The position numbers and the translations under genes are program-made. Shown here piece by piece: positions 8,419 to 62,485 of a stretch of 64,000 nucleotides of DNA. The notes beneath the pieces were generated by a model. That model saw only the letters and a list, made by a program, of their open reading frames with translations, searched no databases and was not told the DNA's origin. The stretch's first letter is position 1, and every line of letters begins with the position of its first letter. Source of the stretch: Carcharhinus amblyrhynchos (Eukaryota); contig OZ336881.1 of assembly GCA_965287045.1 (NCBI GenBank), forward strand, positions 73,470,001-73,534,000. Direction: 5' to 3'.

Positions 8419-10297
8419 AAGAACAAAAAACAGTACAGCAGAGGAACAGGCCCTTCGACCCTCCAAGACTGCACCGATCACGTTTACTATCTAGGCCAAC
8501 TGTTTATATCCCTCTATTCCCTGTTTGTCCATATGCCTATCAAGATAAGTCTTAAATATTGGTAATGTAACTGCCTCAACCACCTCACTTGACAGTGCAT
8601 TCCAGGCCCCCACCATACTCTGTAAAAAACTTCCCTGGCATATCTCCACTGAACCTTTTCACCCCTTGTCTTGAACTTGTGCTCCCTTGTAATTGTCATT
8701 TCTGCTCTGGGAAAAAGCTTCCAACTGTTCACCCTATCTATACTTCTCATAATTTTATAAACTTCTATCAGACCGTCCCGCAGCCTCCGTCTTTCCACAG
8801 AGAACAATCCCAGTTTATTCAGTCTCTCCTTTCTCATAGCTAATATTCTCCATATCAGGCAACATCCTGGTAAACCTTTTCTGCACTCTTTCCAAAGCCT
8901 CCAAGTCCTTCTGCTGGTGTGGCAATCAGAATTGAACATAGTATTCCAAATGTAGCCTAACCAATGTTTTATCCAACTGTAACGTAATTTGCCAACTTTT
9001 ATACTCGATGCCCATCTGATGAAGGCAAGCATGCTATATGCTTTCTTCACCATTTTTTCCCCCTTCGCTGCCACTTTTAAGGATCTGTGGAACCGTACTG
9101 TCAGATCTCTTTGTGTGTCTGTGCTCCTAATGGTTCTGTCATTTATTTTGTAGCTCCCACCTGAATTAGATCTACCAAAATGTGTCACCTCGCATTTGTC
9201 TGGATTAAATTCCATCTGCCATTTATTTCTCTGCCCAATTTTCCAGCATATCTATATCCTCTGGCAATCTTCATTTCTGTCCACAACTCCGCCAATCTTA
9301 GTATCATCCACAGACTTGCTAATCAGACCAGCTACATTTTCTTCCAAGTCATTTATATATATCACAAACAGCAGAGGTCCCAGCACTGATCCCTGCGGAA
9401 CACCACTAGTTTCAGACCTCCATTCAGAAAAAACACCCTTCCATTGCTACCCTCTATCTTCTGTGGCCAAGCCAGTTTTAAATCCATCGAGCCATTTCAT
9501 CCCTGATTCCATGAGCTCTAATCTTTTGCGCCAGTTTGCCACGAAGGACCTTGTCAAATGCCTTAGTCCATGTAGACAACATCCTAAGCCCTTCCTTCAT
9601 CAATTATTTTTGTCACCTCCTCAAAAATTAAAGTAGTGAGACATGACCTCTCATGTACAAAACCATGCTGTCTGTCGCCAACAAAACCATTCAGTTCCAA
9701 ATGTGTATAGATCCTATGCCTAAGAATCTTCTCCAACAGTTTCACTATCATGGGCATCAAGGGCCTATAATTACCAGGGTTATCTTTGCTACCCTTCTTA
9801 AATAATAGGACAACATTGACTATTGTCCAATCCGCTGGTACCTCACCACTGATGTGGAGATGCTGGCGTTGGACTGGAGTGAACACTGTAAGAAGCCTCA
9901 CAACACCAGGTTAAAGTCCAACAAGTTTATTTGATATGAAACTCACTAGCTTTCATGGTTTGCCCCTTCGTCAGGTGAGTGGAGAGTTCTGGTCTCAAAC
10001 AGAGCATATAAAGGCACACACAGTTTACAGAATACTGATTAGAATTAGAATTAGACTTTGTGGGTTTACTATCAAATAAACTAGTTGGATTTTAACCTAG
10101 TGTTGTGAGACTTCTTACTGTGTTTACCTCACCAGTGGCCAGTAAAGAAGCAAAGATTTCTGTTAGAGGCCCAGCAATTTCATCTCTTGTCTCCCTCAGT
10201 AATCTGGGATAGATACCATCTGGTCCTGGGGGTTCGTCTACCTTAATGTTTTTTGATTCACCTAACACTTTCTCCCTCGTAATGATGACTTGTTCTA
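8419..10297 (-). mobile_element. CR1 LINE ORF2 fragment inserted into the Rex1 3' UTR, itself interrupted by a PLE piece
   Basis: PGPDGIYPRLL, DNPGNYRP, QHGFV..RSCLT, MEFNPDKCEV.HFG, LGLFSVERRRLR; AAGAACAA at both junctions (8419, 10298). Confidence 0.92.
9849..10124 (-). mobile_element. Penelope-like element terminus with inverted structure and a degenerate hammerhead motif (9942-9980, minus)
   Basis: Inverted AACACCAGGTTAAAGTCCAAC / GTTGGATTTTAACCTAGTGTT arms; CTGACGA...GAAAGCTA on minus; TACCTCACCA duplicated at 9839-9848 and 10125-10134. Confidence 0.8.
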
Positions 10298-12075: not shown

Positions 12076-13822
12076 CAACGTGATTTGTGGTTAACTGCCT
12101 GCTGAAGTGGCACGGCAAACTATTCTGAAGCATGGGGATGAACAATAAATGCCAGCTTTACTTGCATCCCAAGAACAAATGTTTTAAGTAATTCACTTCC
12201 AGACTGGCAACATGGACATTTTTGATCTAAGTATATAAGATATGTTAACCCTCTTTGCTCTTTTATATTGCCTTCCAATATAAGCAGCTACAGTTGTACC
12301 TTTTGTGAATTTGCAGAGATGGGATTAGTAACTTCAATACCAATACAGTTTTTCTGCATCCAGCATGTTTCCCTGTTTATTTTCCCTTTGACTGCCTGGT
12401 TGGTGTGGACCTTGTGGCAGAGATTTGGGCCTCGGTGGTGTGTGGCTGGACTCGAATTTGCGCCAGCGGTTTCCCAAGTAGTGAGAAGCTGGATTTTAAA
12501 AGCCAGGCCTTCAAGGACAGAGGGGTGAAATAAAAGCGAGAGCCAGAGAGTGAGCAGAATTAATAATCAATGCATTGCCAGTGCTCTGCCTGTTGGCTCC
12601 TAATTGCCATTGCCCTGCCAGCTCTAGAGAAGAATGTACAATGCTGAGAAGGGGAGTATTCTGAAACAATGCCCTACTTGAGCTCAAAGCAGAACTGCTG
12701 TATTTTTCCAGTTTATTTGTTAAGATATTTTGGTGCTTGTTTGATTATTTGGTTGCAATCACTAAATCACTGAAAAGTACAGTAATAACGTGGGAGCAGC
12801 AGTTTGACTCCTTGCATTACTGGTGCTGACGCAAATTTGTCTTGCCTAATCTCAGACAGTGACTAATCTGTGGTTCATTTTGTTCAAAGCCCATCATAAA
12901 GGCAGCAAAATCCTTTGAGGTTTTTCTAATTTTCATTTTTTGGGGGCTTTCTTTCATGACTAATTTGTGAGCTGAACAGGGAAAGTTGATGAATTGCCAT
13001 TATCTTGTAGGGGATGTTTTATTTAGCTTCTGCCAGCAGAGCGGATTAAATAAAAAAGGAATGCTATATGGTGCAGTGTGATGGCATGCTGTCCTTTCAG
13101 TTCAGGAACCTGGGGTCTGGAGTGCAGCCCAGACTGGTGGATTAAAGTTTCCTTTCTTTGCTGGCTGCAAGTGTCCTTGGGGAAATTACTTTAGGCAGTC
13201 TCAACCCAGTTCCTAATGGGCACCAGTTAACAGCAAAAATTGCTCATAATTAGACACTAATTGACATTAAATTGGCAGTTCCACTTAGAACGTATAAGGA
13301 TGCCTGGTGTGGGAAATGGAAATGTGTTGCAGCCGGGCATGCTTTTCTGAGGCTTGGGTTTTGGCAATGTTGAGCTTAAGTTTCACAATTGAGTCCTCAT
13401 GTCAGTAGATTAACGTCAGTCATCGGTTTCTGTATCTGTTGATGTTCTAGCTCCACTTGTTTGTCAGTACAATCCCACCACTTAAAAAGTCCACTTTAAA
13501 AATTGGTAGTCATTTATGTCAGCCAGAACATGATAGCCATTATCCTCTTTTAACATCCTAGACAAAATTTTCCGGCTGCGCTTGCCCTGAAGCCGAAAAA
13601 TCCCGTCTGAGGTCAACGGACCTTTGCATGGTCTGTATCCAAACCACTCCGATTCCCATGGCAGGCAGGGAAAATTCTGCCCCCTGAGTTAATGTCAATG
13701 TGAAAGTTGTCCATCCTGGCGTTTTAAGTGCTCCATTCACTTTTGGACAGAAAGAGCTGTCCTTACTCATAGGTTTATGCCTTGTTAAGATGCACTGAAT
13801 GTTAAGATAACCATCCCCATTT

Positions 13823-14149
13823 TCATAGAATCATAGAATCCCTACAGTGCAGAAGGAGGCATTTGGCCATCAAGTCTGCACTGACCACAATCCCACCCAG
13901 GCCCTCTCCCCATAACCCTACTTATTTATGCTGCTAATCCCCTGACACTAAGGGGCAATTTAGCACGGCCAATCGACCTAACCCACACATCTTTGGACCG
14001 TGGGAGGAAACCGGAGCACTGGAGCAAACCTACACAGACACAGGGAGAATGTACAAACTCCACACAGACAGTGATCCGAGGCTAGAACTGAACCCGGGTC
14101 CCTGGCACTATGAGGCAGCAGTGCTAACCACTTGTGCCACGTACTGCCC
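13823..14149 (-). mobile_element. HE1-type V-SINE, type-A (CR1-like) tail
   Basis: Full head and V-domain; tail ...CCTCCTTCTGCACTGTAGGGATTCTATGATTCTATGA on minus. Confidence 0.9.
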
Positions 14150-14269
14150 GTTTTATCCCCTTTTTTCCATAATTAGCACAATGCTAAACCAGTCCAGAGA
14201 GTGCGGTTTCTTTAATTGTTGCTGCGAGAAGTGATGTGTTGCTGGAGCTTTTCATCTTGCAGTCATCTG

Positions 14270-14455
14270 TACAGACATATTCTTTTTGTGAGTCTAACAA
14301 TCCTGGATGTGCCAGTATTCTACATTAGCAACCGATTTAAGACAATCAGTCAAGCTTCTCACGTAACTCACTCGTGCTTGTTAGAAGCAGCATACGTTCA
14401 TATGCAGGGACTCACTCTCAGCAAACAAAAGAAATATGTTTAATCTTTACATCTT
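14270..14455 (+). mobile_element. Penelope-like element endonuclease C-terminal fragment
   Basis: NRFKTISQASHVTHSCLLEAAYVHMQGLTLSKQK matches the 23.7-23.9 kb fragment (NQFKIVG...HFCVLEATYINMQGPMLCR). Confidence 0.6.
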
Positions 14456-14564
14456 TTTTGAATTAGTTTAGGCAATTTCAACCTGGTTCCTAATGGGCAC
14501 CAGTTAACAGTAAAAGTTGCTCATTAGAGCTTGGGGAGCCTAAAGTTCTCTGTTGTTTTCTCTG

Positions 14565-14693
14565 TGGCCATGATGTATAGATGCTGGCATTGGACTGGGA
14601 TGGGCTGATGAAAGAGCAGCGCTCCGAAAAGCTCGTAATTCCAAATAAACCTAAACCTGTTGGATTTTAACCTGGTATTGTGTGACTTCTTAC
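14565..14693 (+). mobile_element. PLE terminus with hammerhead-core motif, copy 1
   Basis: CTGATGA (14605) AAGAGCAGCGCTCC GAAA (14626) AGCTC GTAATTCCAAATAAAC; the 5' strand of stem I is missing. Confidence 0.75.
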
Positions 14694-14915
14694 CTTTTTC
14701 CAGGGCAATACCTCAAGCAATCAGAGAGAGAATAGAGTCAGTGTTTCATGTCTGGATCATCCTGATATGAAATGTTGACTCTATTTTCTCTCTCCACAAA
14801 ATGCCGTCAGACCTGCTGTGATTTTCTAGCATTTTCTGTTTTTGTTGCTATTAGATTGTAACCGCGATATACTGCGAGATGTGGCTGCATATTAAATCAG
14901 TATATCTATTTTATA

Positions 14916-15093
14916 GTAAGAAGCCTCGCAACATGAGGCTAATGTCCCAACACGTTTATTTGGAATCACCTGATGAAGGAGCAGTGCTCTGAAAGCTCGT
15001 GATGCCAGATAAACCTAGTGGACTTTAACCTGGTGTTGTGAAACTTCTTACAGTGCCCACCCCAGTCCAACGCTGGCGTCTCCACATCATGGC
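14916..15093 (+). mobile_element. PLE inverted terminus, copy 2, enclosing a hammerhead core
   Basis: ~54-bp imperfect inverted arms (14916-14969 / 14999-15051) flank the ribozyme core. Confidence 0.85.
14954..15014 (+). ncRNA. Putative minimal type I hammerhead ribozyme (PLE-type), sense within the TTC27 intron
   Basis: Stem I GTTTATTTGGAATCAC/GTGATGCCAGATAAAC; C3-A9 CTGATGA 14970-14976; extra A; stem II GGAGC-AGT-GCTCT; GAAA 14991-14994; palindromic AGCT stem III; predicted cut after C14998. Confidence 0.7.
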
Positions 15094-15852
15094 CACCATG
15101 TTTTATTATAGAGCTTGGAGGTCTATAACTTTAACCTTGACCAAGTGCTGAAGAACGGGATTGGAATAGATAGGTGCTTGATGGCTGCAACAGACTTGAT
15201 GGGCCTAAGGGCCTCTTTCTGTGCATCAGAAGAAACCAGATGGGAACAGCATGTTATCTGCTGGCAGTTTTGGTGATGACACCAGTTTCAATAGCCTATA
15301 TAATTTTCAGTGAACTGTCGTAAGGTTTGTCATATGTTCTCCTAGCCATCACCCGTGGCAGGCAGAATGTGTTCACACAAACACGGTGGAGACTGCAGCA
15401 GCTCATCTTCTGTAATAGTTGTTTTTTTCCTTTGACACACAGGATTCTATAAAAGCGAGAACGGGATGTTCCTGGAATTACGTCTGCTAATAACCAGTCT
15501 GGTTTAGTAGCAGCACTCTTACCTCTGCGTGATCAAACCTTTTTAAGGCGGTGTTGCATTTCAAAGGGCTCCACCTTTTGCATGAATCATTAAACTCCTG
15601 TTCTGCAGAATGTAAAAGACCCCAAGGCGCTATTTAAAAAAGAGTTTAAAGGGAGTTCCCTGAAAGTCCTAGCCAACATTCATCCCTCAACCAAAATCAG
15701 GAATGTGTCATTGCCTGCAGCAGGCTTCCAACACTGAAAAGTTTGAATTTAACTCCATGTGCCCCAGGTTTTAACCTGGTGATGTTGTCATGGTTGTTGG
15801 TGAGGGAAATGTTCAATTATAGGGCCCCTACTGCTGGCCTGACTGAACTTTA

Positions 15853-16208
15853 GGGTAGCACGGTGGCAGAGTGGTTAGCACTGCTGCTTCACAGCACCAG
15901 GGATCCGATGCAATTCCGGCCTCGGATCACTGTGTAGAGTTGGCACATTCACCCCATGTCTGTGTGGGTTTCTTCCAGGTGCTCTGGTTTCCTCCCACAG
16001 TCCAGCGATGTGCAGCTTAGGTGGATTGGCCATGATACATTGCCCTTTAGTATCCCAAGATGTGTAGGTTAGATGGATTAGCCATGGTAAATGCATAGGG
16101 TTACAGAGATAGGGCAGGGTGATGGACCCAGGTAAGATACTCTGTCAGGGAGTTGGTACAGACTCGATGGGCCAAATGGCCACCTTCTGCACCATAGGGA
16201 TTCTATGA
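15853..16208 (+). mobile_element. HE1-type V-SINE, type-A tail
   Basis: Head GGGTAGCACGGTGGCAGAGTGGTTAGCACTG, V-domain, tail GATGGGCCAAATGG...GGGATTCTATGA. Confidence 0.9.
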
Positions 16209-16359
16209 ATTTAACACAGACTAGGAATGAAATCTGGAATGCTCTTAATCTGAATGGCCCAGAAACTCATTCCTTTAAACAGTGGGTTACATTTTCCTAG
16301 AACTGAACTAACATTATTCACATTGGTAGCTGGATTGGACAGGCAGACTGCATGAACAA

Positions 16360-16790: not shown

Positions 16791-17315
16791 TTCTTGTTCT
16801 CAAGCCTCCAGCATGGGACTTGGCCAGATGAACTATTGACTCAGTAAGGAAAATATTAAAAAGCCAGCCAAGACTGACAGTAAATAAACAACATGGAGAA
16901 GGTGGTCCTGCTAGGTAATATTTAAAGCAAATCATTTTCCATGTTAAAGAAGTTTGTCTCAAGTTTTTTAATGTTTCCCAGTACTGCAGACAAGCCATGC
17001 ATCATCCCCAAATGAGGGTATAGACTCGCAGGAAATGACCTCCTGACAATTTGTTCTTAACCAAGCCTGTAATGAGGTGCGACTCAACCTCCCTTTCCTG
17101 TGAAGGAAGCACCTGGCTATCATCGCTTGGCGATTCCTGCTGATGACCTGAACATCAGGAGCTGGTTGTGTAAGGATATCAGAGGCGTGAACCTGTGTTT
17201 TTATGTTATGTACCTGCAGTTTAGCATGGAAGACTAACCTGAGATTCAGTATAATTGGTGGTCACCTATCTCTTGATGGCTAATTTAAGCAGAATGTGAA
17301 ATGAATTGCAGGGTA

Positions 17316-17648
17316 GGATCCCTACAGTGCAGAAGGAGGACATTCGGCCCATCGAGTTTACACCAACAACAATCCCACCAAGGTCCTTTCCCCTTAACCC
17401 CACATATTTGTCCCACTAATCCCTCTAACCTACGCATCCCTGGACACCAAGGGGTAATTTAGCCTGGCCAGTGCACCAAAACCACACGTCTTTGGACTGG
17501 GGAAGGAAACTAGAGTGCCCGGAGGAAACCCACACAGACATGGGAGAACGTGCAAACACCACTCAGACAGTGACTCAAGCTGGGAATCGAACCCACATCT
17601 CTGGAGCTGTGAGGCAGCAGTGCTAACCAGTGTGCCACTGTGCTGCTC
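17316..17648 (-). mobile_element. HE1-type V-SINE, type-A tail
   Basis: Same head, body and tail as 13823-14149. Confidence 0.9.
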
Positions 17649-22946: not shown

Positions 22947-23164
22947 TTGTAATAATGAGCAGAAAGTCTGTTTTTGTGATGTTGATTGAGGGATAAATAT
23001 TGGCCAAGACACTAGGAATAACTGCCCTGAGCTTCTTCAAAAGATTACCATAATCAATGCATTGCTGACTGGTCAGAGTCAAAGAATTAAATTGGTCATC
23101 ATTCACTTTTCTTCGAAAACTTGGGAGTCTGATCCTGTAGCCTGACAAGGCCTTAATAAACCCT

Positions 23165-23318
23165 GATGTGGATATGGTGGCATTGGACTGAGATGGGCAC
23201 AGTAAGAAGCTCACAACATCAGGTTAAAGTCCACTTACCTGATGAAGGAGCAGCACTCCAAAACCTCGTGATTTCAAATAAACCTGTTGGTCTTTAACCT
23301 GATGTTTTGAGACGTCTT
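23165..23318 (+). mobile_element. PLE family-1 inverted terminus with a mutated hammerhead core
   Basis: CTGATGA at 23239, AGGAGCAGCACTCC, then AAAA (G12->A); imperfect flanking duplication CTTAATA(AA/GG)CCCT. Confidence 0.8.
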
Positions 23319-23429
23319 AATAGGCCCTAACACTTGTAGAAGTTATACAAAATAATTTCCTTTACCAATAATTTTATATTCAAATAGTCATTTGGCAGTA
23401 CAGAACTTGAGTATTGCTGAAAAAATACA

Positions 23430-27103: not shown

Positions 27104-27301
27104 GTTCTGAAAATCCTGGTGCGAGCTGTGGATGAAGGGATTACCGATAGCAAAGGAGATTCTGCAAAGGCGTTGACAGGGAAACTGCGGGAACTCTTTG
27201 GCAGGGTGACTTCTAGAATAACCAATGATGCTGAGATTTGGAAATTGTATGCCAAGCTGTGCGGAGACGGGCAAACAGAGAACGCAGAAGACAACGAAAA
27301 G
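27104..27301 (+). CDS. TTC27: TTC27 (tetratricopeptide repeat protein 27) internal coding exon, 198 nt, phase 0/0
   Basis: ttcag|GTT...AAG|gttagt; [66 protein letters not shown] matches recalled vertebrate TTC27 (VLKILVRAV...[20 protein letters not shown]). Confidence 0.95.
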
Positions 27302-42528: not shown

Positions 42529-43240
42529 AGCCTAGTTTTATCTATAACTCTCTGGATGAATTCTCTCAACTTATCTTCTGCTCACCTTAAACTTGTTTTT
42601 TTTTCTGGTTTTGTTGAATAATACACCTTGATAAACTGATCCCAAAGAAGGTGCTGAAATTAGGAAATCCCTGCGTAAGGCACTTGCTACTTCCTGGCTC
42701 ACATAGACAGAAAGCAAGAGACTTCACACTATCCACTATCAACCCTTAGTAACTGCAGACCAGCATTGCAATTGCTGCCTATAATAAAGGTCATGGAATC
42801 TTAGTGGATGAGGAACTGATTTAAGATCTTGGCCTTCATAACTTGCGTGTGGTTAGTTTCAGTCCTATTTGTGACATTCCCGAATCTCATAAACAAAGAA
42901 TAAATCTTTTGTCTTGACGCTCAGCATGAGATTGAAACTGTAACCTTCAGTAGGAGGTTATATACCTTGGTCTGATAGAAAAGCCAACACATATTGATCA
43001 GCTGGTGATCTGAGTTACATCAGAGTGCACCATTGTCAAAATATTGAAAATTGTTTTTTTGTTTTTATCACAATCTTCACTCAGATCCTTCAGGAATGTG
43101 CTTTTTCATCTTTGTTAGTGACCTACTGAATGGTGATTCTCTTGACTTCCTTTGGAATTTTCCAACAACTTGTATTCATCAGAGCATAATAAAACATCCC
43201 AAGGTTAAATTAAAACATAAAATTTGACACCAAGCCACTT

Positions 43241-47520: not shown

Positions 47521-48159
47521 TAGGCTATGTTTCAAACCTGAGGAGGTGAGTATGTTTTTAACAGAAAGCTATCCGGCACACATATACTTTGAGGTCCTCT
47601 GAGGAAGTATCATGGAAGTTTTTAATGATGACTGAGTCTTCTGGGATAAACATTCAGATGAGCAAACCTAATGAGAAACCAGTTTCACAGTAGGAAACAA
47701 AAGGTGAAGGTTAAAGCAGCAGCCAGCTGCAGGGGGCTGCTCCACTCTGCTTTGCCATTTGTTTCATCGATTAATTAAGAGAGGGGAATTCCACCAGTGG
47801 TATAAAATGTACTGCTGATAACGTCTCATTAGTGCCATGTCAAGGGATTTGGATAAATGATTTGAATGAGCTGAAGAGAACAAATCAAGCTTAATGTGGA
47901 ACAGGTAGAAACTAATACACGATAAAGAGAAATTCAATTTCCCAATCTGCAAATGGTTGTTATTGGCTAAGGTATCATAAGGATGTCCGGCGATTGAGGG
48001 AATGATATACCTTTATATCATCTTGCTGATGAAGCTACATTTGAAATATTTTAGACATCCTAGTGGCAGGAAGCTAAGAGAAGGGGACATGGGTATGAGA
48101 AATTTGGGGCAGAGAATGGGAGCAACTTTTACACAATGAGTTGTGAGGCTGGAGAAAGC

Positions 48160-61739: not shown

Positions 61740-62485
61740 AAAACCTGGGTAGGGTTTGGCTTTAAGCAATGTTTTAAAGGAGACAAAGTGAGGGGTGTAG
61801 CGAGGTCATTCTGGAGCTTAGGGGCCTTGACGACTGAAACATGGCCATCAATCCCGCAGTGATATCATAGAATCAGAAGAGACCCTTTGGCCCATCAGGT
61901 CTGCACCAACACATTAGAAACTGCACTGACAGAGTTCAGCAGACCCAACCTGCCAGAATGAGAGGGGCACCGATATCTGAGGGACTTGTGAGGCTGGAGG
62001 AGGTTACAGTGATAGGGAGGGAAGCAAGGCCATGGAGGGATTTGAGAATTTTAAAGTCAAGAAATTGCTTGATTGAGAGCCGGTGTAAGTCAGCAAGTAA
62101 AAAGTCTGACAACACCAGGTTTAAGTCCAACCGATTTATTTGATAGTAAACTTTACTATCAAATAAATCTGTTGGACTTAAACCTGGTGTTGTCAGACTT
62201 TTGACAGTGTTTACCCCAGTCCAACGCCAGCATATCCACATTAAGTCAGCAAGCACAGGGGTGCTGGAGGATCAGGATTTGATGTGGGTTAAGGCATACG
62301 CAGCAGAGCTTTGGCAGAGCTGCAGTTCAGGGAGGGTGGAAGGTGGGAGAGCAGTCATGAATGAAGGTCTCAGCCACAGATGAGCTGGGACAGGGGTGAG
62401 GTTGAGCAATGCTACAGGAGTGGAAATAGGCAGCCATAGTGACGATGGGGAAGTGAGGCCAGACGCTCAGCTAGGGGCCAAATAT
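61740..62485 (-). mobile_element. L2 LINE fragment with nested inserts
   Basis: LADLHRLSIKQFLDFKILKSLHGLA motif, split by the PLE palindrome. Confidence 0.8.
62098..62241. mobile_element. PLE family-1 foldback insertion with 12-bp target-site duplication
   Basis: 51-bp arms 62100-62150 / 62152-62202 with 1 mismatch; TAAGTCAGCAAG at 62086-62097 and 62242-62253. Confidence 0.9.

Follow-up and report, generated by a model that had tools for sequence, protein, structure and literature searches.

A hammerhead motif in a shark TTC27 intron: part of an inverted, truncated Penelope-like insertion and most likely inert in the host transcript

The TTC27 intron and its insertions

The window, which is the whole stretch of 64,000 nucleotides analysed here, contains part of the gene TTC27, and one intron of this gene carries a fragment of a Penelope-like element (PLE) with a complete hammerhead core (Table 1). 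The gene was recognised with the TTC27 protein of Scyliorhinus canicula, which gave 18 matches on the + strand of C12:73,340,914-73,521,695 (181 kb), and the exon present in the window, found by a splice-site scan, is 89% identical to the protein of that species. A search with this exon returned 30 matches among 76 candidates, 28 of the 30 being named TTC27 and the best coming from sharks. The TTC27 motifs looked for are absent from the window; the exons that hold them lie upstream of it. The host intron extends over about 34 kb between the exon at C12:73,462,789-977 and window position 27104, and the hammerhead sits in it 12.1 kb before the next TTC27 exon. The flanking exons and the protein matches agree with an earlier reading made from the sequence alone (the sequence-only reading), which had placed the motif on the sense strand of a TTC27 intron.

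Table 1. Features of the host intron, with positions in the window
Feature	Position	Strand	Remarks
Second, separate insertion of the same PLE family	14564-14693	+	360 nt upstream
Inverted 5' arm of the insertion	14915-14969	-	without tail; meets the direct arm at TCAC
Direct arm of the insertion (pseudo-LTR end, hammerhead, tail, first ORF codons)	14966-15099	+	
Minimal type I hammerhead	14970-14998	+	nominal cut after 14998 (predicted)
TTC27 exon closing the host intron	27104-27301	+	protein match to shark TTC27

The insertion shows the hallmarks of PLEs, namely 5' truncation, an inverted arm and a tail on one end only; inverted 5'-truncated copies with a 30-40 bp tail at one end are described as typical of these elements (10.1101/2021.04.23.441226). 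The ATG of the element is located at 15089, the direct arm ending a few codons into the ORF, and a target-site duplication is weakly visible (seven of eight letters, 14907-14914 against 15099-15106). The inverted arm 14916-14969 pairs with 14999-15051 over 54 nt with an energy of -53.9 kcal/mol. The letters TCAC at the junction are those of the native 4-bp stem I, which the inversion lengthens to about 54 nt. The sequence-only reading had described a stem I extended to 16 positions with one mismatch and one G-U pair; that pairing is present between 14954-14969 and 14999-15014 (14 Watson-Crick pairs, one G-U and one mismatch), but the length of 16 given for the inversion has to be corrected to 54 nt. 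The identical junction occurs at 22 loci genome-wide, and the long stem I is therefore a recurrent by-product of inversion. Among the 20 of these loci that were fetched, one is the TTC27 copy itself and nine of the 19 others also keep the core.

The arrangement may have arisen from reverse transcription that started within the tail, a short way into the ORF, halted at the 5' edge of the hammerhead and underwent a strand switch at the TCAC letters, which are complementary because the native stem I is made of them. The tail of PLEs is reported to result from reverse transcription starting at two internal sites (PMC11167929). A start at the edge of stem I, no more than about 10 nt upstream of CUGA, is shared by at least 13 of the 29 similar copies L002-L030, a pattern that may be favoured by the query and the ranking.

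Other repeats surround the insertion. The upstream insertion of the same family is formed by an inverted tail (14564-14604) and a direct arm (14605-14693). Between the two PLE copies a 35-bp near-perfect hairpin (14723-14757 / 14759-14793) lies within 14723-14846 and resembles an inverted end from another high-copy family, probably a PLE too; three such insertions (the copy at 14564-14693, the hairpin and the copy at 14915-15099) are found within 550 bp. Further copies of this PLE end, decayed or without the hammerhead, lie at 9850-9978 (-), 10071-10131, 23164-23327 and 62093-62241. A SINE-like repeat has three copies around the locus, one of them inverted (13826-14149, 15853-16213 and 17314-17644), a 64-nt direct repeat joins 13184-13247 and 14461-14524 with 89% identity, and elsewhere the window holds many LINE reverse-transcriptase fragments. 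Some 17 kb upstream in the same intron there is a sense copy of a sister subfamily (C12:73,467,663; L080:7164-7258) with a matching core and a 5-bp stem II.

The hammerhead motif and its element family

Every letter of the catalytic core that had been read from the sequence was confirmed in type I order: CUGAUGA (14970-14976), a bulged A (14977), GAAA (14991-14994), G-C-U (14995-14997) and C17 (14998), in hammerhead numbering. Stem II pairs GGAGC (14978-14982) with GCUCU (14986-14990) in 5 bp closed by the 3-nt loop AGU; its closing pair is G10.1-U11.1, where the commonest form of the family has C (2,067 CG against 1,434 TG). The palindrome A-GC-U (14994-14997) constitutes loop III with a 2-nt loop, and A14977 is the extra nucleotide before stem II, as in the minimal hammerheads (min-HHR) of PLEs, so that the minimal anatomy with a palindromic loop III, also proposed in the sequence-only reading, is supported. 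The Rfam check proposed there was negative: a search of 14500-15500 with E up to 10 returned eight matches, none of them to a hammerhead family. A loose hammerhead pattern matches four times in the window; 100 shuffles average 0.42 +/- 0.68 matches, none of them reaching four, and the fold of 14930-15040 has z = -5.5.

The motif belongs to a very large family. A strict pattern of the intact motif (core, stem II and A-GC-U-C) has 3,501 exact matches in the genome, 1,722 forward and 1,779 reverse, and its reversed control has none. A DNA search with 14960-15100 gave 3,838 candidates, and among the best 40 scored the top other copy is 94% identical; over 14966-15099 the 39 other best full-length matches show 88-94% identity. 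A sample of 27 segments, each of 10 kb and placed at round coordinates, contained 16 copies that span the hammerhead, five of which retain the core and at least 3 bp of stem II. From this sample the number of core-keeping copies in the genome is estimated at about 54,000 (18,000-126,000), an interval that is too tight given the dependence within inverted pairs, the calculation having used 17 copies where the sample list gives 16.

At locus L010 the same hammerhead follows the C-terminus of an endonuclease, which is the pseudo-LTR position of a PLE, and at L015 it runs into the beginning of the ORF, the ATG being shared by L015 and L007 and continuing into the ORF. The PLE origin attributed to the hammerhead from the sequence is supported by this linkage to both the endonuclease C-terminus and the ORF start. 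The search for relatives of the endonuclease piece yielded 43,111 candidates, of which the best 150 were scored. Five fetched frames (L075-L079, 374-544 aa) contain a C-x4-C-xx-C linker and a GIY-YIG-like IVY..WYIG motif, the latter spotted by eye, Pfam at E 0.01 giving no GIY-YIG match in these frames; L075, of a sister subfamily, matches Pfam RVT_1 with 39.9 bits (cut-off 29.6, E 5e-10). The PDB match, to 'Endonuclease II' of the GIY-YIG family, is weak (E 1.4). By the features of its sequence we assign the element to the EN+ Penelope-like elements of Neptune/Nematis type, the linker fitting Neptune and Nematis alike; a CX2-5CxxC Zn-finger linker between RT and EN is described as the mark of either group (10.1101/2021.04.23.441226).

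The frames L075-L079 represent a younger-looking sister subfamily, with open frames of up to 544 aa and other stem II sequences. In a comparison of 69 loci, from which those chosen for likeness to the TTC27 copy were left out, the sister subfamilies retain the core (CUGANGA and GAAAGCU), the bulged purine and stem I, and stem II differs in sequence and length yet still pairs, a pattern which makes selection on the hammerhead in active elements likely.

Probable neutral decay and predicted inertness of the copy

G12 is the general base of the hammerhead, and the CpG formed by C11.1 and G12 can be followed through the whole family. Among the strict patterns genome-wide CG is present 2,067 times, TG, which spares G12, 1,434 times, and CA, which destroys it, also 1,434 times; the exact tie is a coincidence, and the 95% interval of the TG share is 0.48-0.52. 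Contig 1, over its listed places, has 59 TG against 68 CA (p = 0.48). Since TG is as common as CA, whether G12 is spared is a matter of chance, and decay in the family is neutral. The sequence-only reading was right that the CpG of the TTC27 copy decayed on the C, giving a G-U closure with G12 spared, but the suggestion that this makes the copy special is not supported. The even count (1,434 : 1,434) means that among dispersed copies there is no selection for or against the catalytic G12, which argues that the motifs are mostly inert in host transcripts.

Two observations speak against neutral decay of this particular copy. In the TTC27 copy the stretch 14966-15003 has no non-CpG change, against 15 changes in 141 other aligned positions (p = 0.02), a probability that rises to about 0.3 because the copy was picked for its intact core. 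Compared with the majority of 29 similar copies, a majority biased towards the TTC27 copy, it differs at seven of 125 places, none of them in 14966-15003, and the inverted arm differs at eight further places. The insertion is common to at least two related organisms, C and D, according to contigs across the junctions (runs X8 and X12). The left junction is spanned by the X8 contig 14817-14983, with four other letters, three of them before 14890 and at most one after, so that the motif may be conserved, and the right junction by X8 15065-15186 and X12 15063-15183; such contigs indicate an insertion older than a split that corresponds to some 3-4% divergence of the flanks. Among contigs placed on 14860-15140 at 95% likeness, no orthologous one from the relatives crossed 14984-15064, where short paralogous contigs predominate, and the orthologue comparison accordingly covers close relatives and the 5' half of the motif.

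Folding of the complete transcript predicts paired stems I and II (p of at least 0.98) and an unpaired A14994-U14997, in a model that cannot close a 2-nt loop. With a loop III of two nucleotides the motif is predicted to be unable to fold alone: the finished RNA would collapse into an extended nested hairpin that accommodates stems I and II but not stem III, a single A-U pair closing two nucleotides. Cleavage would need a second copy supplying stem III, and even such dimers would be slow. Single minimal hammerheads of metazoans were reported to show no cleavage and their dimers low cleavage (PMC4209133), the corresponding statements of a review concur in describing single motifs as uncleaved and dimers as weak (PMC6765202), and an anole PLE hammerhead is described as cutting only with the protein of the element, with no RNA-seq read ends at its site (PMC11167929). 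To form the dimer, two copies would have to exchange stem I. The calculated energy of the active homodimer is +4.4 kcal/mol with respect to two monomers (+1.5 to +18.3 for four other copies), and in the predicted minimum-energy dimer of the TTC27 copy the stem II palindromes are cross-paired and the structure is inactive. The idea that a long stem I forbids dimers energetically was rejected, the values being +4.4 kcal/mol with the long stem and +4.3 kcal/mol with the native 4-bp stem; any block to dimerisation would be kinetic, the 54-nt arm having first to open. Nested long duplexes of 42, 54 and 35 bp are also predicted across 14564-15096 and may be a substrate for A-to-I editing.

We therefore regard it as highly probable that the TTC27 copy is a 5'-truncated, inverted PLE end, most likely decaying neutrally and without any meaningful cutting of the TTC27 pre-mRNA. 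This proposal builds on the family membership, the copy number, the symmetric CpG decay, the recurrent junction and the position within the intron.

Alternative readings and known hammerhead systems

The alternative that survives best, although we consider it unlikely, is an accidental split hammerhead acting during transcription, by which a small but measurable share of the transcripts would be cut after C14634. The upstream copy has a broken enzyme half (G10.1 changed to A, and one extra A) and an intact A-G-C-U-C substrate at 14630-14634; organism C has it as well (X8 contig 14151-14652). In the split fold the upstream strand 14635-14693 would be the partner of the inverted arm (14916-14969), the core 14970-14997 would serve as the enzyme, and its A-G-C-U would form with 14630-14633 a 4-bp stem III. 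For transcripts ending at 14998-15035 the pairing between the arm and the upstream strand is predicted with p = 0.94-1.0, and for the isolated strands 14630-14650 and 14954-14997 the complete fold is the calculated energy minimum (-20.6 kcal/mol). In its context, however, the active fold is predicted to lie at best 8.2-9.4 kcal/mol above its competitors, because the palindromes of the two stems II pair with each other or the core is drawn into other pairings. Once transcription has reached 15055, the copy's own arm would win (-53.9 against -43.2 kcal/mol) and the tail duplex (-72.2 kcal/mol) would then lock this pairing, the interval of transcription open to the split fold being about 50 nt. 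The fold also has a C-A mismatch at the third pair of stem I, a G-U closure of stem II and no loop contact; hammerheads without contacts between stems I and II are reported to be slow and to have failed in cells (PMC10761166). Any function of the split hammerhead is less probable than the measurable cut itself. If the split fold did cut nascent RNA, retroelement debris could become a discontinuous ribozyme similar to that of Clec2.

A wider version of the same idea, which we find somewhat harder still to credit, takes the inverted PLE ends in general as antisense-armed hammerheads: through the arm an intact core would gain an extended partner for stem I in any copy of the family, of which tens of thousands of cores exist, and neighbouring copies would assemble split ribozymes, cutting TTC27 after C14634 and shark introns generally.

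Much more doubtful is domestication, in which TTC27 would have kept the copy as an intronic ribozyme like that of RECK in order to tune splicing or output. The sense orientation, the intact core, the unchanged motif outside CpG and the presence of the insertion in relatives speak for it, and conserved intronic hammerheads are described in amniotes (PMC6155905). Against it, stem III is unable to form alone and tertiary contacts are lacking, no hammerhead family was matched in Rfam, G12 was spared at 50:50, and the exact junction occurs elsewhere too. By density, 0.11 sense copies of the strict pattern are expected per gene of the length of TTC27, so that about one such gene in ten should hold one; in TTC27 itself four of seven sense copies covering the motif have a matching core, as do two of three antisense copies. 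The RECK-like retention suggested in the sequence-only reading is consequently not upheld, given 3,501 intact copies, an even decay and a junction shared by 22 loci. Finally, chance resemblance to the hammerhead consensus, which does appear to explain two of the window's four loose matches (43155-43182 and 47538-47571, both outside the family list), has a practically negligible probability for the TTC27 motif and is refuted by thousands of genome copies against none in the control and by the conservation of the motif in sister subfamilies.

Coming back to the inert PLE end, the class of PLE hammerheads has been known since 2014 and the TTC27 copy is one more member of it. A literature search found no shark Penelope hammerhead, the one paper retrieved using 'shark' only for the shape; the supplements of a 2026 preprint (10.64898/2026.07.22.740005) may list the family, and in the passages available from it hammerhead retrozymes are reported in one chondrichthyan and described as depleted in Xenopus introns. 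The same preprint defines retrozymes as head-to-tail tandem units with complete hammerheads. A non-LTR retrozyme of this kind was rejected for the present locus: the neighbouring copy (14605) was inserted separately, its core is broken, and the DNA between the two is unrelated.

The mammalian discontinuous hammerhead in the 3' UTR of Clec2 (PMC6155905) has the same layout as the split fold, with the substrate first and the enzyme last, and a long insert, comparable to the insert of about 330 nt in helix I here. The Clec2 ribozyme is described as conserved and self-cleaving, whereas the split fold of TTC27 is predicted, transient and unfavoured and would be made from two transposon copies. The amniote hammerheads of RECK and C10orf118 are likewise intronic type I motifs, probably derived from retroelements (PMC6155905, PMC10761166); these are reported to be active in cells and conserved across birds and mammals or most mammals, whereas the TTC27 copy belongs to a repeat of high copy number and lacks a usable stem III. 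In place of the canonical RECK-type fold, with its stem III and its contact between stem I and loop II, the TTC27 copy has a loop III of 2 nt and a loop II of 3 nt.

The closest relatives are found among the PLEs. With the Neptune/Nematis EN+ elements, as described in 10.1101/2021.04.23.441226 and PMC11167929, the shark family shares the RT, the Zn-finger linker and, judging from the motif, a putative C-terminal GIY-YIG-like domain, as well as the inverted arm, the tail on one end and an insertion that ends inside the start of the ORF; its hammerhead is followed by the ATG after about 90 nt, whereas the ORF of Poseidon_Ac is reported to start at stem II (PMC11167929). Compared with the min-HHR of the pseudo-LTRs of metazoan PLEs (Cervera and De la Pena 2014, PMC4209133), in whose passages sharks are not named, the TTC27 copy differs by its occurrence in a shark family, by the G10.1-U11.1 pair and by a stem I lengthened through inversion, and it has in common with them the core, the extra nucleotide, the palindrome and the location in a pseudo-LTR.
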